Shown: one piece after another, positions 1-13,468 of the stretch
Position numbering within the stretch: the first letter of the stretch is position 1
Layout of the letters: each line of letters opens with the position of its first letter
IMG/VR virus record: IMGVR_UViG_2526164634_000015
Coordinates: 1-13,468 of that record
DNA from: a virus
Lineage: Duplodnaviria > Heunggongvirae > Uroviricota > Caudoviricetes
Length of the DNA: 13,468 nucleotides
Direction: 5' to 3' (one strand)
Position numbers and translations under genes: made by a program
Notes under the pieces: model-generated
Told to the model about the DNA's origin: nothing
The model's input: only the letters and a program-made list of their open reading frames with translations
Database searches by the model: none

Positions 1-317
1 TCGTTGCCGGCGTTACCGATATGTGTAAATCCTTCAACGGACTGGGAGAACAGGTACAACATGTGCTGAATGATAATCCCTTCTCCGGTCACCTGTTTAT
101 CTTCCGTGGCCGACGGGGGGACACCGTTAAAATTCTTTGGGCTGATGCTGATGGTCTGTGCCTGTTCACCAAACGCCTGGAGGAAGGCCAGTTTATCTGG
201 CCTGCGGTGCGTGACGGTAAGGTATCCATTACCCGCTCGCAACTGGCAATGCTCCTCGATAAGCTGGACTGGCGTCAGCCAAAAACATCCCGCCTTAACG
301 CCCTGACAATGTTGTAA
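1..317 (+). CDS. tnpB: IS66-family accessory protein TnpB (orf2), 5'-partial at window edge
   Basis: Translation ...VAGVTDMCKSFNGLGEQVQHVLNDNPFSGHLFIFRGRRGD...LCLFTKRLEEGQFIWP aligns along its length with the second TnpB copy at 1963-2310 (roughly 65% identical by eye); the reading frame is open back to base 1. Confidence 0.85.
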   Translation, partial: VAGVTDMCKSFNGLGEQVQHVLNDNPFSGHLFIFRGRRGDTVKILWADADGLCLFTKRLEEGQFIWPAVRDGKVSITRSQLAMLLDKLDWRQPKTSRLNALTML

Positions 318-341
318 AAAACACCTGGCCGCATTATAAAA
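1..341 (+). mobile_element. Truncated IS66-family element: 3' part of tnpB only, no orf3 and no terminal repeat; ends where the next IS begins
   Basis: TnpB-like ORF runs in frame from the window edge to a stop at 317; only 24 bp follow before the GTAA terminus of the adjacent element at 342. The expected downstream transposase gene is absent. Confidence 0.6.
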
Positions 342-363
342 GTAAGCGGCTCGTCAGAACCGT
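342..363. repeat. Terminal inverted repeat of the IS66-family element (transposase-proximal end)
   Basis: Begins 5'-GTAAGCG, the start I recall as typical of IS66-family termini; pairs with 3019-3040. Confidence 0.7.
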
Positions 364-371
364 ATTGATAT

Positions 372-1943
372 TTACTGAGAGCTCAGATCAACTTTCCAGG
401 GCAACAGATCGCGTACCCGGTTTGCCGGCCAGTCCTGGATATGTTCAATGACGTAGCGCAGCCACTTTTCTGGCTCCACATTGTTCAGACGGCATGTGCC
501 GATCAGCGAGTACAACACCGCCGCATGTTCACCATCGCTGTCGGAACCCGCGAACATCCAGTTTTTCCGGCCTACGGCCACTCCCCGTAAGGCGTTCTCT
601 GCGATGTTGTTGTCGATTTCCACCCAGCCATTACTGCAGTACACGTTCAGTGCATCCCACTGTTTCAGCAGGTATGCGAACGCTTTTGCCGTATCTGAGT
701 GACGCGACAGTGTTTTCATCTGTTGCTGTATCCAGTCATACAGTGACTGCATCAGTGGCGCGGCTCTGGTTTTTCTTGCCGCCAGACGCTGTTCTGCTGA
801 ACAGCCCCGGACCTCTGCCTCGATGGCATACAGTTCACCGATACGCTGCAGGGCTTCCGTGGTGATGTCGGTGGGCGCTCTTGCATGCACATCGTGGATT
901 TTTCTCCGGGCATGAGCCATACACGCGGCTTCCGTTATTCTGCCGGATTCGTATAACGCCCGGTAACCACCGTAAGCATCGGCCTGAAGCACACCGCTGT
1001 AACCGGCCAGGTGATTTTGTGGATGGATACCTTTCCGGTCCGGACTGTACGCGAACCAGACCGCCGGGGGCATCTGTGAACCGGCGTTACGGTCATCACG
1101 GACGTAGACCCACAGCCGGGCTGTCCGGGTTTACCGCTGCCCGGCTCCTGGACCGGGACGGGGATATCATCAGCATGGACTTTACCGGGCATCAGCACAT
1201 ACTGGCGCAGGACGTCATACTGCGGCTCCAGTAGTTCAGCAACGGCACCAGTCCAGCGCCCCAGTGTGGCACGGCTCAGCTCCACACCCTGACGGCGGTA
1301 TATCTCTGACTGGCGGTATAACGGCAGATGGTCTGCATATTTTCCGGTGACGACATGGGCCAGGAGCCCCGCTCCGGCATAACTGCGTGCAATGGGTTTT
1401 GAAGGCACCGGTGCCTGCACGATATGGTCGCACCGGCAACAGGCCAGTTTCGGACGTTGTGTTTCGATAACCTTAAAGGCGCTGCTGATAAGCTCCAGTT
1501 GCTCTGACACATCACATCCCAGAGAACTGAGTTCACCACCACAGGCAGGACAGCATTCCTCTTCCGGTCCGGATAACCCGGGTTTCACGGGGAAGTGAGG
1601 CCGGTAACGGTTTACGGGCTGAAGACTGGCGCAGGGCGGATGGCAGTACCGGGTCATATTGCTCACCCAGCGTTTCCGCCATTTCTTCCTGAAGTGCGCT
1701 GATTCGCTCCTGTGCTTCCTGTATCTGCCGTTCGGTTTTTGCACGAAGTTTTTCTGAGCTTTTACCGAACTGCATACGTTGCAGTTTCGCAACCAGCACC
1801 TTCAGCCGGTTGATTTCGGAAGCATAAGCCGCCACCCGCTGTGAGAGCAGGCGGTTGTATTCAGCCATCTGGCGTATGGTGTCCTGTTGCGTCTGCAACA
1901 GTGCCCGCAGGCGGGCGTTCTCATGAGCAAGTGAGGTGTCCAT
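372..1943 (-). pseudogene. tnpC: IS66-family transposase (orf3/TnpC) split over three reading frames by two single-base indels
   Basis: N-terminal leucine-zipper segment (ORF 1533-1943: MDTSLAHENARLRALLQ...), zinc-finger and middle segment (inside ORF 935-1792: PEEECCPACGGEL...[16 protein letters not shown]) and DDE C-terminal segment (ORF 372-1073: [15 protein letters not shown]...) are consecutive parts of one transposase in three frames. Frame switches lie near 1555-1580 and 1095-1130. Confidence 0.8.
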
Positions 1944-1962
1944 ATCCTCACTTTACAACGGG

Positions 1963-2310
1963 TTATATGCGGATTCCAGCGCGTTCCGTTCGTTTCGGGT
2001 GCTTCCAGTTGATACCTTCAAGAAGCATGGATAACTGAGCCGGAGTAAGGTGCACCTTGCCGTCACGGGTGACTGGCCAGACGAAGCGGCCCCGCTCCAG
2101 GCGTTTGGTGAAGAGGCACAGTCCGTCACTGTCAGCCCACAACACTTTTATCTGGTCACCCCGGCGTCCGCGGAAGATGAACAGGTGTCCGGAGAACGGG
2201 TCATCCTTCAGGACGTTCTGAACTTTTGATGCCAGGCCGTTAAAACCATTTCGCATATCGGTGATACCGGCAACCAGCCAGATACGCGAACCGGCAGGGA
2301 GAGATATCAT
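1963..2310 (-). CDS. tnpB: IS66-family accessory protein TnpB (orf2)
   Basis: 115-aa ORF MISLPAGSRIWLVAGITDMRNGFNGLASKVQNVLKDDPFSGHLFIFRGRRGD..., a recognisable IS66 Orf2; start overlaps the tnpA stop (ATGA). Confidence 0.9.
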   Translation of the reverse strand: MISLPAGSRIWLVAGITDMRNGFNGLASKVQNVLKDDPFSGHLFIFRGRRGDQIKVLWADSDGLCLFTKRLERGRFVWPVTRDGKVHLTPAQLSMLLEGINWKHPKRTERAGIRI

Positions 2311-2987
2311 CAGTGGCTGCTCCCTTTCATTTCGCGGATAAGTGTCTGTAATAACGCCGGCGTCAGTTTACCTTTAAGCCTGAGAGTTCCGGCCGGCAGA
2401 ATCAGCTCACAACACAGACTGTCGGACGGTGTATTTATCTGCTCTGGTTCCTGTGCGGGGGCCGGGATTTTATTATCCGGCTCCGGCGTTAACGTCACGG
2501 GAAGCAGTACCGGCATATTTTTTCCGGAAGGCAGCAGGCCACCTTTCCGGTATTGATGGCGCCAGTTGAAGAGCAGGTTATCGTTGATTCCGTTTTCCCG
2601 GGCGATCTGCGCCACACAGGCTCCGGGCTGCAGTGACTGCTCCACTAAGGCGATTTTAAACTCATAAGGGAAGTTGGGCCGCCGGGGACGTTTTTTTATC
2701 ACGGGGGCTTCGGATATAACGGTGTTTTCAGGACGTACGACTGGTACCGTGGAAAATTGTCCGTAAAGGCAGGCATCAAGTTCCTGCTCCGACATGCCTG
2801 CGGGCAAAGGCCACGAAAGGCCAGCTCTCCGAAAGCGCACGAACATATTACAAACTGTTGATTTTGGTACACCCAGGCGACGCCCGGCCACAACCCGGGG
2901 TAAATGTTCTTCAAAGTGAAGACGTAAAGCTTCAGTGATCCAGGTCCGGTGTTTCATACGATAGTGTCCATTAAAAATGATGGACAT
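2310..2987 (-). CDS. tnpA: IS66-family accessory protein TnpA (orf1), long form with two helix-turn-helix-like regions; true start may be an internal Met
   Basis: C-terminal half (RPRRPNFPYEFKIALVEQSLQPGACVAQIARENGINDNLLFNWRHQYRKGG) looks like an IS66 Orf1 / IS3-type HTH; lies inside the IS about 53 bp from the 3040 terminus and is coupled to tnpB. Confidence 0.75.
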   Translation of the reverse strand: MSIIFNGHYRMKHRTWITEALRLHFEEHLPRVVAGRRLGVPKSTVCNMFVRFRRAGLSWPLPAGMSEQELDACLYGQFSTVPVVRPENTVISEAPVIKKRPRRPNFPYEFKIALVEQSLQPGACVAQIARENGINDNLLFNWRHQYRKGGLLPSGKNMPVLLPVTLTPEPDNKIPAPAQEPEQINTPSDSLCCELILPAGTLRLKGKLTPALLQTLIREMKGSSH

Positions 2988-3018
2988 TATTTTTGTAGAG
3001 CCGGAGGAAACAGACCAG

Positions 3019-3040
3019 ACGGTTTAAATGAGCCGGTTAC
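3019..3040. repeat. Terminal inverted repeat of the IS66-family element (tnpA-proximal end)
   Basis: ...AGCCGGTTAC ends at 3040; its reverse complement starts GTAACCGGCTC and pairs with 342-363. Confidence 0.7.
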
Positions 3041-3051
3041 GATAAATATCC

Positions 3052-3585
3052 ATGAACACCAAAATCAAATACGGCCTGTCGGCTGCCGTTCTGGCGCTGA
3101 TTGCCGCTGGTGCGTCTGCGCCTGACATTCTCGATCAGTTTCTGGATGAAAAGGAAGGCAATCACACCACGGCATACCGTGATGGTGCAGGTATCTGGAC
3201 CATCTGCCGTGGTGCCATCATGGTGGATGGCAAACCTGTCGTTCCGGGCATGAAGTTGTCGAAGGAAAAATGCGACCAGGTTAACGCCATTGAGCGTGAT
3301 AAAGCGCTGGCGTGGGTGGAGAAAAACATCAAAGTGCCATTGAGCGAACCCCAGAAAGCGGGGATCGCGTCATTCTGTCCGTACAACATTGGTCCCGGTA
3401 AGTGTTTCCCGTCGACGTTTTATAAACGAATTAATGCAGGTGATCGCAGGGGAGCGTGTGAGGCGATTCGCTGGTGGATTAAGGACGGTGGCAGAGACTG
3501 CCGTATTCGTTCAAACAACTGCTACGGTCAGGTATCCCGTCGTGACCAGGAGAGCGCGCTGGCGTGCTGGGGTATCGACAGATAA
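3052..3585 (+). CDS. Phage endolysin, T4-lysozyme-like (GH24) with an N-terminal signal-anchor-release (SAR) type hydrophobic segment
   Basis: 177-aa ORF; N-terminus MNTKIKYGLSAAVLALIAAGASAP is a weakly hydrophobic Ala/Gly-rich segment; E-x8-D-x5-T catalytic spacing in EGNHTTAYRDGAGIWT; followed by Rz/Rz1 as in lambdoid lysis cassettes. Confidence 0.9.
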   Translation: MNTKIKYGLSAAVLALIAAGASAPDILDQFLDEKEGNHTTAYRDGAGIWTICRGAIMVDGKPVVPGMKLSKEKCDQVNAIERDKALAWVEKNIKVPLSEPQKAGIASFCPYNIGPGKCFPSTFYKRINAGDRRGACEAIRWWIKDGGRDCRIRSNNCYGQVSRRDQESALACWGIDR

Positions 3586-3675
3586 GCAGAATATTTTGCT
3601 GAAAAATAAAGCATGGCCACGCGGGCGGATAACATGAAATCCTGCGAACTGGCGAAACGTAAGTGAATAAAAGTA

Positions 3676-3712
3676 AAAACCCCGTTTGTTGGCACCAAGC
3701 GGGGTTTTGTGT
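3676..3712 (+). terminator. Intrinsic (rho-independent) terminator downstream of the endolysin gene
   Basis: AAAA-CCCCGTTTG-(loop)-CAAGCGGGG-TTTTGTGTTT: GC-rich stem of about 9 bp followed by a T-run, with an A-run upstream so it could act in both directions. Confidence 0.6.
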
Positions 3713-3744
3713 TTCCTGACTCCGGAAAAGTCAAAGGAGAAAGT

Positions 3745-3882
3745 GTGTTTGATTTTAGCAAACTGATTCGGGAGATTCGAGTGATGGCTGAAAAATTATC
3801 CACCTGGAAGTTCATTCTTATCTGGCTGGTGTTTGTGATTATGGCCTCCGGTTATTTCATCGGTCAGATACGCTGGTGGTGA
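3745..3882 (+). CDS. Small predicted single-pass membrane protein (45 aa from GTG 3745, or 32 aa from ATG 3784), stop overlapping the Rz start region
   Basis: AGGAG at 3734-3738 lies 6 nt before the GTG; translation [45 protein letters not shown] has one hydrophobic helix; its TGA (3880-3882) is 1 nt before the Rz ATG (3884). Too short to appear in the ORF track. Confidence 0.35.
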
Positions 3883-3883
3883 A

Positions 3884-4348
3884 ATGAACCGCGTACTGTG
3901 CGTAGTCATCATTGCCCTGCTGGTGGCCTGTGGTGCGCTTAGTCTGGGGCTGAATCATTACCGTGATAACGCCATTACCTACAAAGCCCAGCGCGACAAA
4001 AATGTCAGAGAACTGAAGCTGGCGAACGCGGCAATTACTGACATGCAGATGCGTCAGCGTGATGTTGCTGCGCTCGATGCAAAATACACGAAGGAGTTAG
4101 CTGATGCGAAAGCTGAAAATGATGCTCTGCGTGATGATGTTGCCGCTGGTCGTCGTCGGTTGCACATCAAAGCAGTCTGTCAGTCAGTGCGTGAAGCCAC
4201 CACCGCCTCCGGCGTGGATAATGCAGCCTCCCCCCGACTGGCAGACACCGCTGAACGGGATTATTTCACCCTCAGAGCGCGACTGATAATAATGCAAAAA
4301 CAACTTGAAGGGGCACAGCTATACATTCGAGAGCAATGCCTCAGATAA
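3884..4348 (+). CDS. Rz: Spanin inner-membrane subunit Rz (i-spanin)
   Basis: 154 aa; N-terminal TM helix ([20 protein letters not shown]) then a charged coiled-coil-like region; contains the embedded Rz1 frame; follows the endolysin. Confidence 0.85.
4104..4286 (+). CDS. Rz1: Spanin outer-membrane lipoprotein subunit Rz1 (o-spanin), embedded in the +1 frame of Rz
   Basis: 60 aa; signal peptide with lipobox (LVVVGC) and Pro-rich mature part (PPPPPAW...PPPDW); entirely inside Rz in another frame, the classic Rz/Rz1 arrangement. Confidence 0.8.
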
Positions 4349-4655
4349 AAACCGGCCAAGGATAATCCGCTGAAGATTCGCCGGTGGCTAAAGTGTGCCA
4401 AGAGTTCAATTTACGCAATTACTCCAGTCGATGCTATGCACCGTCTTTGTGAAGTCAATGGATACCTGATTTATTTCTGTGCGCTGTATCGTCGCTGTAC
4501 TCTTGCATTAATTATGACTGTAGCCTGACGGGGAACTCCTTCTGCACAAGTGTGGGGGAATAATCAAAAACGATGCACACCGGGGTTACCGGGTACACAT
4601 ATTTCATCATGCCAGCGAGTCCGGTTCTGGCACGGAAGAAACCGGACGTTATGAT

Positions 4656-5081
4656 TTAGTGCGGAAATATTTGTGTAGTGTTCTGAATGTTCTCAGTAAA
4701 GAGTAATGAATTATCAAAGGTATAGTAATACCTTTTGTTTTCGTGGATATTTGTAATCCATCTGAAAACCCCTGCTGTAGCAAGATTTTTCCTGTATTCG
4801 TAAAATGATAACTCTCCTGATTTGAATCCTTTTAAGGTGGCTTCTATAAGGCATTTATTTTTTGAAAATCTTACATTTACAACCTTACCCTGTCCTTTTA
4901 TTAAAACCGTATTATCGTTTTCAAGAACAAGATGAATATTCTCTGTGGCTAAATAGTAAATGTAATGTGAGACATTGTGACGTTTTAGTTCAGAATAAAA
5001 CCAGTGATAGTTTAAATTATTTCGCACTTTATCGAATATTTGTTTAAAAATGGCAACCTGAGCCATTGTAGTACCTTCCAT
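4656..5081 (-). CDS. AT-rich moron gene; hypothetical protein, tentatively DUF1398 family (YbcV/YdfO-like) from memory
   Basis: 141-aa ORF in a segment of about 33% GC (by eye), far below neighbouring phage genes; position between Rz1 and cos/terS matches where I recall ybcV/ydfO-like genes in E. coli K-12 cryptic prophages. Start may be the internal Met (MAQVAIF...). Confidence 0.6.
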
Positions 5082-5123
5082 GTGATATGAGGGGGCGTAG
5101 TCTGCACGATTATCTAAATTGCT

Positions 5124-5357
5124 TCAATCTGGTCTGACCTGTTTTCTGAGCAATTCAGTAATGTCACTCTTTTCTTTGTTTGCTTCAGGCGAAACTCTTT
5201 TTACTGAGCACAGTCTCCGGCGGCAGGCTTCAATGACCCAGGCTGAGAAATTCCCGGACCCTTTTTGAACAAGAGCGATGTTAATTTGTTCAATCATCTG
5301 GTTTGGAAATCGGATGTTGCGGGTTGTTGTTCTGCGGGTTCTGTTCTTTGATGACAT
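5124..5357 (-). CDS. Small ribbon-helix-helix-like protein, tentatively DUF3950 family (YlcI/YnfO-like) from memory
   Basis: 77-aa ORF with a basic N-terminus followed by TRNIRFPNQMIEQINIALVQKGSGNFSAWVIEACRRRL, an RHH-like strand-helix-helix pattern; co-oriented 42 bp upstream of the 141-aa gene. Confidence 0.55.
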   Translation of the reverse strand: MSSKNRTRRTTTRNIRFPNQMIEQINIALVQKGSGNFSAWVIEACRRRLCSVKRVSPEANKEKSDITELLRKQVRPD

Positions 5358-5563
5358 AATGTTTCCCCATATTCAGTGTTGCTGATTTGTATTATCTGAA
5401 GTTGCTTTTACGTTAATTTGACGCAGATCAATCAATACGATACCTGCGTCATAATTGATTATTTCTCGTGGTTTGATGGCGTACACACATGTTGTGATAA
5501 ACCTTATATAGATGATAATCATTATCATTTCGTGGGTCCTTTCCGGCGATCCGGGCCGTTACG

Positions 5564-5575
5564 GGGCGGCGACCT
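5564..5575 (+). other. cosN cohesive-end sequence (12-nt GGGCGGCGACCT) of a lambda-type cos site
   Basis: 5358-5608 reads like the junction of the lambda right and left genome ends (...GATGATAATCATTATCA...CCGTTACG | GGGCGGCGACCT | CGCGGGTTTTCGCTATTTATGAAAATTTTCCGG) as I recall them, immediately upstream of the small terminase gene. Confidence 0.85.
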
Positions 5576-5758
5576 CGCGGGTTTTCGCTATTTATGAAAA
5601 TTTTCCGGGATCCATGTCCGGTTTCTCTTCAAGTTAACTATATGAAAAATATAAAAACAGGTCTTCTGTGAACCGGACATGAACAAAAAACAGACATGTA
5701 AACCGGACATGACCGGTTTTGTTGTGATTGTGAGGTGAGAGTTTTTGCGAGGTGAGGA
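5576..5758 (+). promoter_or_regulatory. cosB-like terminase binding region: one inverted and two direct copies of an AACCGGACATG motif flanking an A/T-rich candidate IHF site
   Basis: CATGTCCGGTT at 5613-5623 (inverted), AACCGGACATG at 5671-5681 and 5701-5711 (direct, 30 bp apart), A/T-rich stretch 5631-5660 between the inverted and direct copies; parallels the lambda R3-I1-R2-R1 layout with a different motif. Confidence 0.65.
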
Positions 5759-6268
5759 GTGGCTACGCAGACTGAAGTTGCCAGGCATTTAAGTCTGACC
5801 GATCGCCAGCTTCGCAGATTGCAGAAATTGCCGGGTGCCCCGATATCGAATAAGCGAGGGCAACTGGATCTGGATGCCTGGCGCGATTTTTACATATCGT
5901 ATCTGAGGAGAAGTAAAAACGATGTGCCTGATGGCGATAGCGAAGACGACTATGAGGAGAAATTGCTTATTGCCAGATGGGAACTGACAGCAGAACAGGC
6001 TGTTACACAGCAGTTAAAAAATGAGGTGTCAAAAGGAAAACTTATTGACACCGGGTTCTGTATTTTTGCCCTCAGTAAGCTGGCAATGGCGTTATCCAGT
6101 ACGCTTGATTCCATCCCTTTATCCATGCAGCGACAGTTTCCTGATTTAACACCGCGCCATCTTGACCATCTGAAAACCCTTATTGCGAAGGGGGCAAATC
6201 AGTGTGCGCGGGCAGGGGATAAATTACCGGATTTACTCGATGAATATATCAGAGCAACAACTGAATAA
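5759..6268 (+). CDS. Terminase small subunit (Nu1-like DNA-recognition subunit), GTG start
   Basis: 169 aa; N-terminal HTH-like TQTEVARHLSLTDRQLRRL; sits directly after cosB and overlaps the terL start by 29 nt, as Nu1/A do in lambda; GAGG 6-7 nt upstream of the GTG. Confidence 0.75.
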   Translation: MATQTEVARHLSLTDRQLRRLQKLPGAPISNKRGQLDLDAWRDFYISYLRRSKNDVPDGDSEDDYEEKLLIARWELTAEQAVTQQLKNEVSKGKLIDTGFCIFALSKLAMALSSTLDSIPLSMQRQFPDLTPRHLDHLKTLIAKGANQCARAGDKLPDLLDEYIRATTE

Positions 6269-8167
6269 TATGGTGGCCGCCGTTTCGGTTGCGCTGCAGC
6301 CTCTGGTCAGGGTTGTACCGATGACGGCAGTTGAATGGGCTGACCAGTATTATTATCTGCCGAAAGAATCCTCATACGGTGACGGCGAATGGAAAACGCT
6401 GCCGTTCCAGATCGCCATCATGAACAGTATGGGGAATGATCAGATCCGCACTGTTAATCTGATTAAATCTGCCCGTGTTGGCTATACAAAGATGTTGCTG
6501 GGAGTCGCCGGGTATTTTATTGAGCATAAATCCCGAAACAGTCTGCTTTTTCAGCCCACGGATTCTGCCGCTGAAGATTTTATGAAGTCTCACGTGGAGG
6601 CGACGATTCGGGACGAGCCATGCCTGAAAGATCTTTCCCCGTGGCTGGGTCGTAAACATCGTGACAATACTCTCACGCTGAAACGCTTTTCATCGGGGGT
6701 GGGCTTCTGGTGCCTGGGTGGTGCGGCAGCAAAAAACTACCGTGAAAAATCCGTGGACGTGGTCTGCTATGACGAACTTTCCTCGTTCGAGCCGGATGTC
6801 GAAAAAGAGGGCTCGCCAACCCTGCTGGGGGATAAGCGTATTGAGGGCTCGGTATGGCCAAAATCCATTCGCGGCTCGACGCCTAAAATAAAAGGCTCCT
6901 GCCAGATCGAAAAAGCGGCCAACGAGTCGGCGCATTTCATGCGTTTTTATGTGTCCTGCCCGCACTGTGGGGAGGCGCAGTATCTGAAATTTGGCGATGA
7001 GTCCACGCCTTTTGGCCTTAAATGGGAGAAGGACAGCCCCGAAAGCGTTTTCTACCTCTGTGAACATCATGGCTGCGTGATCCATCAGTCTGAGCTTGAC
7101 CAGAGCAACGGGCGGTGGATCTGCGAAAACACGGGCATGTGGACCCGCGACGGTCTGACGTTTTTCAGCGCCCGGATAATGAAATTCCGCCGCCGCGCTC
7201 CATCACATTTCATATCTGGACGGCGTACAGTCCGTTCACCACCTGGGTACAGATTGTCTATGACTGGCTGGATGCACTGAAAGATCCCAACGGCCTGAAA
7301 ACCTTTGTGAACACCACGCTGGGCGAGACCTGGGAAGAGGCCGTGGGCGAAAAACTCGATCACCAGGTGCTGATGGATAAGGTTGTGCGTTACACGGCTG
7401 CGGTGCCTTCCCGGGTGGTTTATCTGACGGCGGGCATTGACTCGCAGCGAAACCGTTTTGAGATGTATGTCTGGGGATGGGCTCCGGGAGAGGAAGCCTT
7501 TCTGGTGGATAAAATCATCATTATGGGGCGTCCCGATGAGGAAGAGACGCTGTTACGTGTGGATGTGGCGATCAACAAAAAATACCGCCATGCAGACGGA
7601 ACCGAAATGACCATTTCCCGTGTCTGCTGGGACACCGGGGGGATCGATGGCGAAATTGTCTATCAGAGGTCAAAAAAACACGGTGTTTTCCGGGGGCTGC
7701 CGGTAAAAGGTGCATCTGTTTATGGCAAGCCGGTGATCACCATGCCAAAAACCCGCAATCAGCGGGGCGTGTATCTGTGCGAAGTGGGGACGGACACCGC
7801 AAAAGAAATTCTCTATGCCCGTATGAAAGCCGATCCCACGCCTGCGGATGAAGCCACGTCGTATGCCATCCGTTTTCCTGATGATCCGGAGATTTTTTCG
7901 CAGACAGAGGCGCAGCAACTGGTGGCGGAAGAGCTGGTGGAGAAGTGGGAAAAAGGAAAGATGCGTCTGCTGTGGGATAACAAAAAGCGGCGTAACGAAG
8001 CGCTGGACTGCCTGGTGTATGCCTACGCGGCATTACGTGTGTCCGTGCAACGCTGGCAGCTTGATCTGGCTGTACTGGCAAAATCCCGGGAAGAAGAGAC
8101 GACCCGGCCAACCCTGAAAGAACTGGCAGCGAAGCTGTCCGGAGGAGTGAATGGTTACAGTCGCTGA
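6240..8167 (+). pseudogene. A: Terminase large subunit (lambda gpA-like), interrupted by a -1 frameshift near 7170-7175
   Basis: ORF 6183-7280 (real start MNISEQQLNNM at 6240) matches the gpA N-terminal half as I recall it (TAVEWADQYYYLPKES..., GYTKMLLGVAGYFIEHK, KRFSSGVGFWCLGGAAAKNYREKSVDV); ORF 7115-8167 in another frame continues with ITFHIWTAYSPFTTWVQIV...KRRNEALDCLVYAYAALR. One base appears missing in the GCCCGG run around 7170-7175. Confidence 0.85.
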
Positions 8168-8357
8168 ACTGCAGGCGCTGCGTCAGGCGCGCCTTGATTT
8201 ATTAACCGGTAAACGGGTGGTGTCTGTCCAGAAAGATGGTCGCAGAATTGAATATACGGCGGCTTCTCTGGATGAGCTTAACCGGGCGATCAATGATGCG
8301 GAGTCGGTACTGGGGACAACCCGACGTCGCCGTCGTCCGCTGGGAGTGAGGTTATGA
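8151..8357 (+). CDS. W: Head completion / head-tail joining protein (lambda gpW-like)
   Basis: 68 aa, MVTVAELQALRQARLDLLTGKRVVSVQKDGRRIEYTAAS..., close to lambda W as I recall it; stop overlaps the portal start. Confidence 0.85.
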   Translation: MVTVAELQALRQARLDLLTGKRVVSVQKDGRRIEYTAASLDELNRAINDAESVLGTTRRRRRPLGVRL

Positions 8358-9946
8358 AACGAACGCCTGTCCTGATTGATGTGAACGGCGTTCCGCTTCG
8401 TGAGAGTCTCAGCTACAACGGGGGCGGCGCAGGATTTGGCGGGCAAATGGCGGAGTGGTTGCCACCGGCGCAGAGTGCCGATGCAGCCCTGCTGCCTGCG
8501 TTGCGTCTGGGGAATGCCCGGGCAGATGATCTGGTGCGCAATAACGGAATAGCGGCTAATGCGGTGGCCCTGCATAAGGATCACATTGTCGGGCATATGT
8601 TTCTGATCAGCTACCGTCCGAACTGGCGCTGGCTGGGGATGCGGGAGACCGCAGCAAAAAGCTTTGTCGATGAGGTGGAGGCGGCCTGGTCGGAATACGC
8701 AGAAGGGATGTCTGGCGAGATCGACGTGGAAGGAAAACGCACATTTACGGAGTTTATCCGTGAAGGTGTTGGCGTTCATGCGTTTAACGGCGAAATCTTT
8801 GTGCAGCCGGTCTGGGATACGGAAACCACGCAGTTATTCCGTACGCGTTTTAAAGCCGTGAGTCCGAAACGGGTGGACACGCCAGGACACGGTATGGGGA
8901 ACCGTTTTCTGCGGGCCGGGGTGGAGGTCGATCGATATGGCCGTGCCGTTGCGTACCATATCTGTGAGGATGATTTTCCTCGCTCCGGGAGTGGACGATG
9001 GGAACGGATCCCGCGTGAACTTCCCACCGGGCGTCCGGCCATGCTGCATATTTTCGAGCCGGTGGAGGACGGGCAGACCCGTGGGGCCAATCAGTTTTAC
9101 AGCGTCATGGAACGGCTGAAGATGCTCGATTCCCTGCAGGCAACACAGCTTCAGTCGGCCATAGTGAAGGCGATGTATGCAGCGACGATTGAAAGTGACC
9201 TTGATACCGAAAAGGCCTTTGAATATATCGCCGGCGCGCCACAGGAGCAGAAGGATAATCCGCTTATTAATATTCTGGAGAAGTTCTCCAGCTGGTATGA
9301 CACGAATAACGTGACACTGGGCGGTGTCAAAATTCCGCACCTTTTCCCTGGTGATGATCTGAAACTACAGACTGCGCAGGATTCAGACAATGGATTTTCG
9401 GCGCTTGAACAGGCGCTGCTGCGGTATATCGCCGCCGGTCTTGGCGTTTCCTACGAACAGTTGTCCCGGGATTACTCGAAGGTCAGTTATTCAAGTGCCC
9501 GCGCCTCCGCCAATGAGTCGTGGCGCTATTTTATGGGACGACGAAAATTTATTGCGTCCCGGCTGGCCACGCAGATGTTTTCCTGCTGGCTGGAAGAGGC
9601 ACTTCTTCGGGGGATTATTCGTCCGCCACGGGCGCGTTTTGATTTTTATCAGGCGCGATCAGCCTGGTCACGGGCTGAGTGGATTGGAGCCGGAAGAATG
9701 GCCATTGACGGGCTCAAGGAGGTTCAGGAATCGGTGATGCGCATTGAGGCCGGACTGAGCACGTATGAGAAAGAGCTGGCGCTGATGGGCGAGGATTATC
9801 AGGACATTTTCCGCCAGCAGGTCAGGGAATCTGCAGAGCGGCAAAAAGCCGGACTCTCACGTCCGGTGTGGATAGCGCAGGCGTATCAGCAGCAGATAGC
9901 GGAGAGTCGCAGGCCGGAAGAGGAGACAACACCCCGTGAGACGTAA
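8354..9946 (+). CDS. B: Portal protein (lambda gpB-like)
   Basis: 530 aa, collinear with my recollection of lambda gpB over the whole length (GGGAGFGGQ..., NARADDLVRNNG, FEPVEDGQTRGAN, LQSAIVKAMYAATIES, GRMAIDGLKEVQE); no frame disruption. Confidence 0.9.
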   Translation: MKRTPVLIDVNGVPLRESLSYNGGGAGFGGQMAEWLPPAQSADAALLPALRLGNARADDLVRNNGIAANAVALHKDHIVGHMFLISYRPNWRWLGMRETAAKSFVDEVEAAWSEYAEGMSGEIDVEGKRTFTEFIREGVGVHAFNGEIFVQPVWDTETTQLFRTRFKAVSPKRVDTPGHGMGNRFLRAGVEVDRYGRAVAYHICEDDFPRSGSGRWERIPRELPTGRPAMLHIFEPVEDGQTRGANQFYSVMERLKMLDSLQATQLQSAIVKAMYAATIESDLDTEKAFEYIAGAPQEQKDNPLINILEKFSSWYDTNNVTLGGVKIPHLFPGDDLKLQTAQDSDNGFSALEQALLRYIAAGLGVSYEQLSRDYSKVSYSSARASANESWRYFMGRRKFIASRLATQMFSCWLEEALLRGIIRPPRARFDFYQARSAWSRAEWIGAGRMAIDGLKEVQESVMRIEAGLSTYEKELALMGEDYQDIFRQQVRESAERQKAGLSRPVWIAQAYQQQIAESRRPEEETTPRET

Positions 9947-11440
9947 TCTTTCACACATTATTGCCGCAGCATTCAATGAACCGCTGCTTCTGGAGCCCGC
10001 CTATGCGCGGGTTTTCTTTTGCGCGCTCGGGCGCGAGATGGGGCAGCAAGTCTTTCGGTACCACAGCAGCAGGTACAGCTTGATGCTCCCGGAATGCTGG
10101 CTGAAACGGACGAGTACATGGCCGGAGGTAAACGACCGGCCCGTGTTTACCGGGTGGTGAACGGTATTGCTGTACTGCCGGTGACCGGCACGCTGGTGCA
10201 CCGGCTGGGGGGTATGCGGCCATTTTCCGGAATGACAGGCTATGACGGTATTGTCGCCTGTCTTCAGCAGGCAATGGCGGATAGCCAGGTGCGGGGCGTA
10301 CTGCTGGACATTGACAGTCCGGGCGGGCAGGCCGCCGGCGCGTTTGACTGCGCTGACATGATTTACCGCCTCCGTCAGCAGAAGCCGGTCTGGGCACTGT
10401 GCAATGACACGGCCTGTTCTGCAGCCATGCTGCTGGCATCGGCCTGCTCCCGACGGCTGGTTACCCAGACATCCCGTATCGGCTCCATTGGCGTGATGAT
10501 GAGCCATGTCAGCTATGCCGGTCATCTGGCGCAGGCCGGTGTGGATATCACGCTGATTTACTCAGGGGCGCACAAGGTGGATGGCAATCAGTTTGAAGCC
10601 TTACCGGCAGAGGTTCGCCAGGACATGCAGCAGCGCATTGATGCGGCGCGCCGGATGTTTGCCGAAAAAGTGGCGATGTTTACCGGTCTGTCTGTTGATG
10701 CCGTCACGGGAACAGAGGCCGCCGTTTTTGAAGGTCAGTCCGGCATTGATGCCGGGCTGGCGGATGAATTAGTCAATGCGTCGGATGCCATCAGTGTGAT
10801 GGCCACGGCGCTGAACAGTAATGTCAGAGGAGGCACTATGCCGCAATTAACTGCAACGGAAGCCGCCGCGCAGGAGAACCAGCGAGTGATGGGGATCCTG
10901 ACATGCCAGGAAGCGAAAGGACGTGAACAGCTTGCCACGATGCTGGCAGGACAACAGGGCATGAGCGTTGAACAGGCCCGGGCGATTCTGGCCGCGGCGG
11001 CACCGCAGCAGCCGGTGGCATCCACGCAGAGTGAAGCCGATCGCATTATGGTGTGTGAAGAAGCGAACGGTCGTGAACAACTGGCGGCAACGCTGGCGGC
11101 GATGCCGGAGATGACGGTGGAAAAAGCCCGCCCGATCCTGGCTGCTTCACCGCAGGCGGATGCCGGACCCTCACTCCGTGATCAGATCATGGCACTGGAT
11201 GAGGCAAAAGGGGCTGAGGCGCAGGCTGAACAGCTGGCTGCCTGCCCGGGAATGACTGTGGAGAGCGCCCGGGCTGTGCTGGCTGCGGGATCAGGTAAGG
11301 CAGAACCGGTCTCTGCATCCACAACCGCCCTGTTTGAACGCATCATGGCGAACCATTCACCGGCTGCGGTACAGGGTGGCGTGCCACAGACGTCAGCAGA
11401 CGGTGATGCGGACGTGAAAATGCTCATGGCCATGCCATGA
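9936..11440 (+). pseudogene. C: Head maturation protease / scaffold (lambda gpC-Nu3-like, S49 peptidase family), -1 frameshift near 10040-10075; C-terminal scaffold-like part holds three protein-level repeats
   Basis: GTG start at 9936 gives ...LSHIIAAAFNEPLLLEPAYARVFFCALG (gpC-like N-terminus) and then runs into a stop; the rest of gpC (VNGIAVLPVTGTL..., LDIDSPGG, PVWALCND, SIGVMMSHV) is in ORF 10019-11440 in another frame. Confidence 0.8.
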
Positions 11441-11476
11441 AGTCAGTGCTGACCATCAACAGGAGGTTTTTACAAT

Positions 11477-11824
11477 ATGGTGACGAAAACTATCACTGAA
11501 CAGCGTGCGGAAGTACGTATTTTTGCCGGTAATGATCCGGCTCATACCGCCACAGGCAGCAGCGGGATTTCCTCGGCAACACCGGCACTGACGCCCCTGA
11601 TGCTGGATGAAGCCACCGGGAAACTGGTGGTCTGGGACGGACAAAAAGCCGGTAGTGCGGTTGGCATACTGGTACTGCCGCTTGAAGGCACAGAGACGGC
11701 GCTGACCTATTACAAGTCGGGGACCTTTGCGACGGAGGCAATCCGCTGGCCTGAAAGTGTGGATGAACACAAAAAGGCCAATGCCTTTGCCGGCAGTGCC
11801 CTGAGTCACGCGGCGCTGCCGTAA
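11477..11824 (+). CDS. D: Head decoration protein (lambda gpD-like)
   Basis: 115 aa; DPAHTATG...TPLMLDEATGKLVVWDG...VGILVLP...YYKSGTF resembles lambda gpD as I recall it; AGGAGG 10 nt upstream of the ATG. Confidence 0.85.
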   Translation: MVTKTITEQRAEVRIFAGNDPAHTATGSSGISSATPALTPLMLDEATGKLVVWDGQKAGSAVGILVLPLEGTETALTYYKSGTFATEAIRWPESVDEHKKANAFAGSALSHAALP

Positions 11825-11831
11825 CACGTTA

Positions 11832-11851
11832 TCAGGCCACCGCGGTGGCCT
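11832..11851 (+). other. Perfect 20-bp palindrome (CAGGCCACCGCGGTGGCCTG) in the D-E intercistronic region; candidate RNA stem-loop
   Basis: The sequence is its own reverse complement; sits 8 nt after the D stop and 30 nt before the E start; no T-run follows, so more likely a processing or stability element than a terminator. Confidence 0.4.
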
Positions 11852-11881
11852 GACTGATTTCTGAATGAAAGGAACTGATTT

Positions 11882-12913
11882 ATGGGATTGTTTACGACCC
11901 GCCAGTTACTCGGTTATACCGAACAAAAAGTGAAATTTCGTGCGCTGTTTCTGGAGCTGTTTTTCCGCCGTACGGTGAATTTCCATACCGAAGAGGTGAT
12001 GCTGGACAAAATTACCGGAAAAACGCCGGTGGCGGCCTATGTCTCCCCGGTTGTTGAAGGAAAAGTGCTGCGTCATCGCGGTGGTGAAACCCGCGTGTTA
12101 CGTCCGGGCTACGTCAAGCCGAAACACGAATTTAATTACCAGCAGGCGGTTGAGCGTCTTCCCGGTGAAGAGTCCGGCTCAGCTGAACGACCCGGCCTAC
12201 CGTCGTCTGCGTATCATCACTGATAACCTCAAACAGGAAGAGCACGCCATTGTCCAGGTGGAAGAAATGCAGGCGGTGAATGCCGTGCTGTATGGCAAAT
12301 ACACGATGGAAGGAGACCAGTTCGAGAAAATTGAGGTCGATTTTGGCAGGTCGACGAAGAATAACATCACTCAGGGTAGTGGTAAGGAGTGGTCAAAAAC
12401 AGGATCGTGACACGTTCGATCCTACACATGATCTTGACCTACTACTGCGACCAGGCCAGCGGTCTTGTGAATATTGCCATTATGGACGGTACCGTCTGGC
12501 GTCTGCTGAATGGCTTTAAATTGTTCCGCGAAAAACTGGATACCCGTCGCGGCTCTAATTCGCAACTCGAAACAGCGGTGAAAGACCTGGGCGCGGTGGT
12601 GTCCTTCAAAGGGTATTACGGCGATCTGGCCATTGTGGTGGCAAAAACGTCTTATGTGGCAGAGGACGGTACCGAAAAACGTTATCTGCCTGAGGGCTCG
12701 CTGGTCCTGGGGAATACGGCAGCAGAGGGCATTCGTTGCTATGGTGCCATTCAGGATGCGCAGGCGTTGTCCGAAGGTGTGGTGGCCTCTTCCCGTTATC
12801 CGAAACACTGGCTGACGGTAGGGGATCCCGCCCGTGAATTTACCATGACGCAGTCCGCGCCGCTGATGGTGTTGCCGGACCCGGATGAGTTTGTGGTGGT
12901 ACAGGTGAAATAA
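11882..12913 (+). pseudogene. E: Major capsid protein (lambda gpE-like) interrupted by three +1 single-base insertions (about 12173, 12395, 12440) that together restore the original frame
   Basis: Segments in four ORFs (11882-12223, 12039-12410, 12280-12519, 12389-12913) each match consecutive stretches of gpE as I recall it (KPKHEFNYQQ..., DPAYRRLRII...VEEMQAV..., DTFDPTHD, ...KLDTRRGSNS...SRYPKHWLTVGDPAREFTMTQSAPLMVLPDPDEFVVVQV). Confidence 0.85.
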
Positions 12914-12918
12914 TCCGT

Positions 12919-12950
12919 GAGCGGGGGCGAAATGCCCCCGTGTCTTTTTT
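12919..12950 (+). terminator. Stem-loop with T-run directly after the capsid gene; candidate intrinsic terminator or attenuator
   Basis: GCGGGGGC-GAAAT-GCCCCCG followed by TGTCTTTTTTC, between the E stop and the FI start. Confidence 0.45.
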
Positions 12951-12964
12951 CACAGGGGGATGAT

Positions 12965-13339
12965 ATGGCAACGAAAGAGCAAAATCTGAAACGGTTTGAT
13001 GAACTGGCCCTGATTCTGGGGCGTGAGCCGGATATATCCGGGAGTGCCGCAGAGATAGCGCAGCGGGTGGCAGAATGGGAAGAGGAAATGCAGTCATCCG
13101 GCGATGATGTACAGGTTATGAATATGGATATCCGGGAGAGGGAAAACGCGGCTCATGATGTTCGTGAGGAAACATCCGGCGCGTTAACGCGCATCAGAGT
13201 TCTGACCTGCCTCCATCTCTGTGGCGTTGATGGTGAAACGGGGGAATCCGTTGAGCTTGCGGATGTTGGTCGGGTGATTCTGATTATGTCCTCAGATGCA
13301 AAAACACACGTTGATGGTGGAATGGCTGTTTATGCGTGA
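12965..13339 (+). CDS. FI: DNA packaging protein (lambda gpFI-like)
   Basis: 124 aa from the ATG at 12965 (GGGGGA RBS-like run just upstream); acidic protein in the gpFI position between E and FII; sequence similarity to lambda FI is weak, so the call rests mainly on synteny. Confidence 0.6.
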   Translation: MATKEQNLKRFDELALILGREPDISGSAAEIAQRVAEWEEEMQSSGDDVQVMNMDIRERENAAHDVREETSGALTRIRVLTCLHLCGVDGETGESVELADVGRVILIMSSDAKTHVDGGMAVYA

Positions 13340-13468
13340 TTTTCAGAATGCCTTTGATGCCGCCCTTGCCGGGGTGGACAGTACGATTGTTGAAGTGATG
13401 GGCATCAGTGCGCAGTTCACCTCCGGTGCACAGCGTGGCGGCGAAGTTCAGGGGGTTTTTGACGATCC
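13332..13468 (+). CDS. FII: Head-tail connector protein (lambda gpFII-like), 3'-partial at window edge
   Basis: ATG at 13332 overlaps the FI stop; translation MRDFQNAFDAALAGVDSTIVEVMGISAQFTSGAQRGGEVQGVFDD parallels the N-terminus of lambda FII as I recall it. Confidence 0.7.
   Translation, partial: MRDFQNAFDAALAGVDSTIVEVMGISAQFTSGAQRGGEVQGVFDD

Follow-up and report, generated by a model that had tools for sequence, protein, structure and literature searches.

What are the two small leftward genes that sit between the lysis and packaging genes of a lambda-like prophage, and do they form a functional pair? The question is raised by IMG/VR virus record IMGVR_UViG_2526164634_000015 (Caudoviricetes), positions 1 to 13,468, which we refer to as the window (the whole stretch analyzed, 13,468 nt). 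The window is a lambda-like prophage segment, and our subject is its part from Rz to the cohesive-end site cos. Here, two accessory open reading frames (ORFs; 4656-5081 and 5124-5357) lie on the - strand, antisense to the late operon, whereas all phage genes flanking them are on the + strand. An earlier note, made from the sequence alone, had described the position and orientation of these genes correctly and had gone on to propose an AT-rich two-gene moron resembling an antitoxin-toxin or regulator-effector pair. We favor, with moderate confidence, a different explanation: the segment would be the Qin-type form of an accessory region that lambda-family genomes conserve at their right end, and it would carry two separate leftward genes, ynfO/ylcI and a homolog of ydfO/ybcV, that are regulated by the host and expressed in the lysogen. 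A toxin-antitoxin pair, a defense or anti-defense function, and a role in the virion or in packaging each appear less likely.

The locus itself is already known. Both genes have names and annotations; as the ynfO-ydfO/ylcI-ybcV pair, they lie beside cos in lambda and in most E. coli lambdoid prophages, and the locus is largely ordinary. The cos-proximal gene (5124-5357, - strand; 77 aa) belongs to the ynfO/ylcI family, matching PF13132 (DUF3950) at E 2.1e-20 (72.8 bits, cut-off 25) and the NCBIfam model YlcI_YnfO_N (NF041551) at 35.2 bits, above the cut-off of 30. The product of the Rz-proximal gene matches PF07166 (DUF1398) over profile positions 1-119 of 119 (E 3.3e-43, 147 bits, cut-off 22) and is 78% identical to E. 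coli K-12 YdfO (phmmer E 1.4e-69), which has a nuclear magnetic resonance (NMR) structure, PDB 2HH8. The DUF3950 and DUF1398 assignments of the earlier note are thus correct. RefSeq annotation of an identical prophage begins the DUF1398 ORF at its second ATG, giving 136 aa (4656-5066, - strand) instead of the 141 aa of the longer ORF (4656-5081); an AAGG Shine-Dalgarno sequence lies 7 nt upstream of the second ATG, while the first has none, and we therefore favor the 136-aa form. That identical copy is in the prophage of E. coli O111:H2 strain 12A, where the genes are annotated as "DUF1398 domain-containing protein" and "ynfO: YlcI/YnfO family protein." More broadly, 4243 of 5426 complete E. 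coli genomes have a match to the 1.2-kb segment (at least 80% covered in 2064), as do 161 phage records, including lambda at 46867-48492. The DUF1398 allele of the window is 99-100% identical only to those of phages PhiR49_1, Kati, Chlobot, and ev099 and of the O111:H2 12A prophage. The locus can be considered a "known unknown": two conserved, intact proteins encoded beside FNR-, PdhR-, and Fur-type sites, neither with an assigned function.

Two known arrangements frame the comparison. In K-12 Qin, ynfO and ydfO lie between the lysis genes and cos/nohA, as in the window, with the same order, strand, and spacing; the Qin YdfO is the 78% identical homolog, and an exact PdhR box is common to both. 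The YnfO of the Qin-like SCU-112 copy is 95% identical over 77 aa and has the same tail. Compared with Qin, the window has a distinct DUF1398 allele, an FNR box with one mismatch, and a nearly unique 130 bp beside Rz. In lambda and DLP12, homology at the DNA level covers 83% of the segment at ~85% identity, the DUF1398 protein is 76-78% identical, the YlcI core is 91% identical, and the cos-proximal 200 bp contain the same FNR and Fur boxes. The lambda right end reads bor, lambdap78, lambdap79, an unannotated ylcI ORF, and cos; DLP12 reads bor, ybcV, ybcW, ylcI, and nohD. Unlike the window, both have bor and a rightward ybcW between the two genes, such that the pair is not contiguous, and their YlcI is 64 aa long with a different tail.

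A wider set of relatives shows that the two genes are independent of each other. The proposal of a cargo slot between lysis and packaging genes holds, as relatives have bor/iss, Rha, Ant, ybcW, or nothing there. The slot contains bor, ybcV (lambdap78), ybcW (lambdap79, rightward), and ylcI before cos in lambda and DLP12; Rha, ydfO, and ynfO before cos in SCU-112; iss and ylcI before cos in an O111:H11 prophage; and a DUF3950 gene, followed by HNH-TerS-TerL, in Stx2a phage WGPS2. In the window, it contains the ydfO-like gene and ynfO before cos, with no bor and no ybcW. The DUF1398 gene is thus absent from O111:H11 (iss/ylcI/cos) and from WGPS2 (Rz/DUF3950/HNH), both of which have DUF3950, and its G+C content is 0.314 (0.317 for the longer ORF) against 0.53 in its surroundings. 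By presence/absence and by base composition, it behaves as a moron. In contrast, ynfO/ylcI is the constant gene of the slot and departs only mildly in composition (0.444; whole window 0.531, flanking late genes 0.51-0.55), so the AT-richness ascribed to the entire segment applies strongly to the DUF1398 gene alone. The "two-gene moron" is better viewed as two separable modules. Like the lambda morons bor and lom, the DUF1398 gene occupies a variable slot, runs against or independently of the late operon, and is atypical in composition; bor and lom encode envelope proteins with serum-resistance or adhesion roles, whereas the products encoded in the window are predicted to be cytoplasmic, with lysogenic expression suggested by the K-12 homologs.

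Independence extends beyond the prophages. DUF3950 is found in 151 phage records and DUF1398 in 43. Divergent DUF1398 genes (33-39% identity) lie on Kluyvera, Klebsiella, Salmonella diarizonae, Raoultella, and Pseudocitrobacter chromosomes, with no DUF3950, Rz, or Nu1 homolog within 4 kb and no same-strand ORF of at least 70 aa immediately upstream (shorter ORFs were not screened). Two metagenome contigs contain further orphans, one between an aryl-polyene-type cluster and formate dehydrogenase, the other (L029) beside a fimbrial cluster with a 42-aa ORF called just upstream. Among the neighbors of the orphan genes, no partner recurs. The chromosomal loci were found with a narrower alignment of the family; the broad alignment has no conserved stretch.

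Both genes also appear to have been maintained. In pairwise comparisons, the ratio of nonsynonymous to synonymous substitution rates (dN/dS) is 0.17-0.34 for the YnfO core (against the lambda, DLP12, Qin-like, O111:H11, and Stx2a copies) and 0.18-0.36 for DUF1398 (against the lambda, DLP12, and Qin-like copies), which indicates that both are under purifying selection and are real genes. The prophage around them is decaying and has acquired an IS66 insertion. Relative to the 12A prophage, single-nucleotide indels frameshift terL (at 7173), the S49 protease/scaffold gene (10040), and the major capsid gene (12172), while positions 4349-5600 are 100% identical, with no differences. The prophage in the window therefore looks defective, unless the indels are assembly errors. 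Likewise, the K-12 prophage DLP12 is defective, yet its homologs are annotated as intact. Intact genes in decaying prophages form a pattern that fits service to the lysogen rather than to lytic growth, for which lambdap78 is non-essential as judged by CRISPR interference (PMC10695390).

How might a lysogen express them? FNR-, PdhR-, and Fur-type sites are present in the segment, and binding has been demonstrated experimentally at the K-12 homologs. The 200 bp from the ynfO start to cosN, with 91% mean identity over five aligned sequences (window, lambda, DLP12, SCU-112, and O111:H11), surpass the coding DNA in conservation. Within them, a pattern search identified an FNR-type box, TTGATctgcGTCAA (5418-5431, - strand), that matches TTGAT-N4-ATCAA at 9 of 10 positions. 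The lambda, DLP12, and Qin-like copies have the perfect box TTGATctgcATCAA, the exact site bound by FNR at nohB and nohA/ydfO in K-12 by chromatin immunoprecipitation on microarrays (ChIP-chip) and electrophoretic mobility shift assay (PMC1802558); a peak at nohA has also been reported by FNR ChIP sequencing (PMC3688515). Measured from its center, the box in the window precedes the end of a -10-like hexamer, GATAAT (5391-5396, - strand), by 33.5 bp; lambda, DLP12, and the Qin-like copy have GACAAT as the hexamer. Based on this spacing, the box would be near -41.5 of a transcription start near 5384, a class II geometry, and a 27-nt leader containing the Shine-Dalgarno sequence GGGGA (5369-5365, - strand) would precede ynfO. 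Together, these signals suggest a class II-like FNR promoter reading into ynfO.

The DUF1398 gene has signals of its own. A PdhR box, AACAGGTCAGACCAGAT (5127-5143, - strand), lies ~60-75 bp upstream of the DUF1398 start and overlaps the stop codon of ynfO. It agrees at 17 of 17 positions with a site that a SELEX (systematic evolution of ligands by exponential enrichment) study reported within the Qin ynfO>ydfO peak (PMC7660256). In the same study, ybcV mRNA was 10-fold lower in a pdhR mutant (PMC7660256), and the ydfO transcript is described elsewhere as strongly inducible in K-12 (PMC4077768). The PdhR box is kept whether or not ynfO lies upstream: its core, TGGTCTGACC, is retained upstream of lambda p78/ybcV, where ybcW, not ylcI, is the preceding gene. 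A -10-like GATAAT is found at 5114-5109 (- strand). Given the conserved box and this hexamer, the DUF1398 gene most likely has its own promoter, which would depend on PdhR and lie within the 3' end of ynfO. Immediately 3' of the DUF1398 stop codon, RNA folding predicts a hairpin, GTCCGGTT-N13-AACCGGAC (4621-4649, - strand), with a stem that is conserved and a 13-nt loop that varies in lambda and SCU-112; it is a candidate transcript-end structure.

These findings bear directly on the possibility of a type II toxin-antitoxin (TA) or abortive-infection pair, in which YnfO would be a ribbon-helix-helix (RHH) antitoxin and autorepressor whose tail neutralizes a DUF1398 toxin. The layout in the window is suggestive, with a small RHH-like gene followed 42 bp later on the same strand by a 136-aa gene, and YnfO combines a conserved DNA-binding core with a variable C-terminal tail, the 77-aa tail type being seen in the window and SCU-112, both of which have the DUF1398 gene directly downstream. 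However, a mosaic junction at that point explains this association of tail and adjacency equally well. Co-occurrence fails in both directions (151 versus 43 phage records, with each gene found alone), the divergent ybcW separates the genes in lambda and DLP12, where the YlcI tail is shorter and different, and the orphan DUF1398 genes have no same-strand ORF of at least 70 aa immediately upstream (shorter ORFs were not screened in the genome loci, and a 42-aa ORF is called there at L029). For neither protein was a significant toxin or defense family found in Pfam, NCBIfam, or PADLOC; PADLOC returned nothing, and the HEPN_AbiA_CTD score was 15.8 bits against a cut-off of 27. Moreover, an ASKA overexpression clone of ybcV was scored for its phenotype in a glycogen screen (PMC2853380); as this screen is growth-based, the clone grows and is not overtly lethal. 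Altogether, we regard a TA or abortive-infection pair as quite unlikely, and the antitoxin-toxin or obligate regulator-effector pair of the earlier note is not upheld: the genes occur independently, ybcW can split them, the DUF1398 gene has its own PdhR box, and no toxin or defense family is involved. That the TA reading is unsupported, and that the genes are separable and apparently wired separately to host regulators, narrows the experiments that are worthwhile.

If the genes are not a TA pair, what are their products? YnfO is very basic (isoelectric point 11.2), with six K/R among its first 16 residues. In the family alignment, residues 1-52 are almost invariant, including an invariant G-N-F-S-A-W in the NFS motif region, while the C-terminal tail varies. 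An AlphaFold2 model has an extended basic N-terminus, a helix at 19-32, a turn at G33, and a second helix at 34-52, with a core predicted local distance difference test score (pLDDT) of ~84. This recalls Arc and Mnt of P22 (PF03869, RHH), which are likewise small, phage-encoded, and basic. In YnfO, N-x-R-x-P stands before helix A just as N-L-R-W-P does in Arc and N-F-R-M-P in Mnt, with the register unchanged, and helix A is followed by a glycine-containing turn and a second helix. In local alignment, YnfO N-I-R-F-P aligns with the Arc motif without gaps (z 2.6, reached by 1.9% of shuffles); in the same test, Mnt gave z 1.2, and CopG gave no relevant match. The Arc and Mnt sequences used were confirmed to be PF03869 members. 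The likeness is at the level of the motif, and an RHH dimer and operator are putative. Thus, an Arc/Mnt-like, RHH-like DNA-binding function for YnfO is plausible and partly supported, but it is not established.

The DUF1398 protein is different in kind. It has an isoelectric point of 9.4 and a mass of 16 kDa, with no hydrophobic segment and no signal peptide. R15, Y35, T41, N43, A96, G99, W103, R112, and Y114 are nearly invariant across divergent members. No functional family was found for it in PADLOC or NCBIfam. Its AlphaFold2 model (11-sequence alignment; pLDDT 45.8) was too poor for a fold search, so inference at the fold level is limited to the existence of 2HH8. It is a soluble, cytoplasmic alpha+beta protein with no catalytic signature and no known phenotype.

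The favored explanation brings these lines together. In it, ynfO/ylcI would be the constant gene just upstream of the packaging genes and would encode a small, very basic DNA-binding protein, probably a dimer of the Arc/Mnt-like RHH type, while ydfO/ybcV would be an optional AT-rich insert encoding the 16-kDa soluble DUF1398 protein. Each gene would have its own sigma-70 promoter under host control, by FNR for ynfO and by PdhR for the DUF1398 gene, and both would be expressed from a repressed or cryptic prophage, responding to anaerobiosis and pyruvate status. In the lytic cycle, both would be shut off by the late transcript, which is convergent and Q-antiterminated. YnfO would most likely bind repeats in its own conserved upstream region, and the DUF1398 protein would most likely act by binding a host component. 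One candidate for YnfO is an inverted repeat, ATCAATTATGACG-N7-CGTATTGATTGAT (5427-5459, - strand), that abuts the FNR box and varies hardly at all among the five lambda-type sequences, with one arm position differing in the window; it could be a YnfO operator or an additional cluster of FNR/CRP-type half-sites.

Several observations weigh against this explanation. Transcription of the genes in the window is read from sequence signals and from K-12 homologs. The FNR box in the window has a mismatch, a strict sigma-70 scan found no leftward promoter upstream of 5357, and Grainger et al. reported low promoter activity and a marginal FNR effect for the homologous fragment, with fusions in the nohA direction only (PMC1802558). 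The hairpin at 4621-4649 has no U tract, was not called by the terminator scan, and is not a canonical terminator; the scan found no canonical leftward terminator. As for YnfO, it matched no RHH family in Pfam at E values up to 10, PF03869 included, and hhalign of its alignment to CopG and Arc gave a probability below 2%, in a test whose power is limited by low family diversity (effective sequence number, Neff, 1.5); the pairing of YnfO T12-I27 with Arc Q9-K24 in that comparison was not significant. Searches of the PDB by phmmer and hmmsearch gave only a spurious uL16 match, and Foldseek gave nothing significant. The profile and structure checks proposed in the earlier note returned both Pfam families, but no significant RHH match by profile, hhalign, or Foldseek; its description of the 77-aa protein as RHH-like is plausible rather than established. 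Finally, the in-frame 42-bp spacing of the genes and the coincidence of the 77-aa tail with direct adjacency would also fit a functional pair.

The location of the genes raises the possibility of a superinfection-exclusion or anti-phage moron, or of an anti-defense function expressed from the end of the genome that enters first, with DUF1398 as effector and YnfO as regulator. The right cohesive end of lambda is packaged last and ejected first. Both genes are within 1 kb of this end, in a variable accessory slot that elsewhere holds bor/iss, Rha, or Ant, and the DUF1398 gene has an AT-rich, foreign composition. In contrast, neither protein has a PADLOC match, the module persists under purifying selection in cryptic prophages, which have lost injection and exclusion as phages, and DUF1398 orphans lie in ordinary chromosomal contexts. 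The predicted regulatory sites are those of the metabolic regulators FNR and PdhR, not of infection. We consider a defense or anti-defense role unlikely.

The conserved DNA between ynfO and cos offers a further possibility, one that builds on the explanation of two host-regulated genes. The cohesive-end sequence of cosN, GGGCGGCGACCT (5564-5575, + strand), was read directly, is kept in lambda, and forms the right boundary of the accessory region. Beyond it, CGGACATG-type motifs are repeated at 5613-5718, which we take to be the R sites of cosB. To its left is a perfect Fur 7-1-7 box, TGATAATcATTATCA (5513-5527; 0 mismatches, 0.04 expected by chance), that is ~136 bp upstream of the predicted ynfO start. 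It overlaps a promoter-like site on the + strand, TTGTGA-16-GATAAT (5492-5519, promoter scan), that is 40 bp left of cosN and reads across cos to Nu1. We assign the predicted Fur box to the rightward unit, as a neighbor of the module and not part of the ynfO promoter. At K-12 nohA, the homologous site was gel-shifted by Fur, and the nohB site was predicted at 25.3 bits (PMC2189734). In the prophage, the predicted box and promoter would place transcription that crosses cos into Nu1/terminase under the control of iron. Taken further, YlcI/YnfO may be an overlooked Arc/Mnt-like repressor, controlled by FNR in the lysogen, that binds the conserved DNA up to cosN and couples the oxygen or iron status of the host to leftward and rightward transcription across cos or to prophage behavior, with DUF1398 as a PdhR-controlled, host-directed effector. 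We hold this extended version to be speculative and unlikely; if true, it would add a new regulatory layer to a phage that is supposedly fully understood.

Database labels suggest yet another role. PHROG 413 is labeled "head protein," and older lambda records have "putative envelope protein," as would fit virion or packaging components, or YlcI as a cos-binding packaging accessory. Indeed, ylcI always adjoins packaging genes, even in the HNH-TerS-TerL module, and the 200 bp between ynfO and cosN surpass the coding regions in conservation. However, the genes are antisense to the late operon, the DUF1398 protein has neither a signal peptide nor a hydrophobic segment, and DUF1398 occurs outside prophages. 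Knock-down of lambdap78 by CRISPR interference did not reduce lambda plating (efficiency of plating 1.9; PMC10695390). The labels derive from names of the GeneMark era and from COG and not from an experiment, the note in the lambda record being only "Predicted by GeneMark." The two labels are without support, and a virion or packaging role is very improbable.

Other annotations of this locus are misleading as well. The lambda reference (NC_001416) does not annotate the intact, conserved ylcI ORF next to cos (48139-48303, leftward), and its "head protein" lambdap78 has an extent of 177 aa, while the conserved protein has 136 aa. The statement that YdfO overexpression protects against oxidative stress (PMC4077768) is a mis-citation: the cited work, Wang et al. 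2010 (PMC3105296), does not contain ydfO but reports YfdK, YfdO, and YfdS of CPS-53, a mix-up of the names YdfO and YfdO. Correction of the "head" and "envelope protein" labels and of this citation is a practical outcome of our analysis. In the window, a 51-aa ORF (5373-5528, PHROG 9395), the ynfO gene, and the long DUF1398 ORF are in one frame (4656-5528, - strand), parted only by TGA codons. We rejected the 51-aa ORF as a gene; with dN/dS of 0.45 to >1, it is probably non-coding. Proteins that appear to fuse both domains (P0134, with 761 members, P0130, P0047, and P0054) are artefacts in which TGA is read as W (genetic code 4).

Searches of large sequence collections for DUF1398 mostly returned laboratory lambda. 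A homolog search of 1.84 billion representatives yielded 255 clusters, mostly lambda control-DNA fragments, and a profile search of a 5.8-billion set was dominated by lambda-derived reads. Contamination by lambda control DNA is widespread: YlcI and DUF1398 matches are labeled Staphylococcus aureus, Bacillus sp., Klebsiella, and the spider Caerostris extrusa, and a 48-kb record named "Campylobacter phage CJLB-4" is among the contaminant matches. There are also many ENA contigs of ~3.5 kb, presumably an amplicon from the right end of lambda used as a sequencing control.

The rest of the window is arranged as follows. Rz (3884-4348, + strand), with Rz1 embedded in it (4104-4286, + strand), was identified by Pfam, as were the lysozyme gene upstream (3052-3585, + strand) and Nu1 (5759-6268, + strand), downstream of which are terL, also on the + strand, and then the head genes. 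Between Rz and the DUF1398 gene is a non-coding spacer (4349-4655), in which matches to lambda and its relatives begin at query position 131-132. The ~130 bp adjoining Rz (4349-4479) are nearly unique to this prophage type and occur in very few genomes. The remainder (4480-4655) shares homology with lambda DNA lying downstream of lambdap78, the site of the bor promoter, and this promoter is annotated in HK630 at the start of the match, although bor is absent from the window. Upstream of the lysozyme gene, an IS66-family element occupies ~1-3040; the O111:H2 12A prophage, otherwise near-identical, is without it. On the - strand, the element contains an HTH_Tnp_1 ORF (2310-2987), TnpB_IS66 (1963-2310), and an IS66 transposase in three ORFs (1533-1943, 935-1792, and 372-1073). 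A second TnpB_IS66 fragment (21-317) lies in the opposite orientation, on the + strand.

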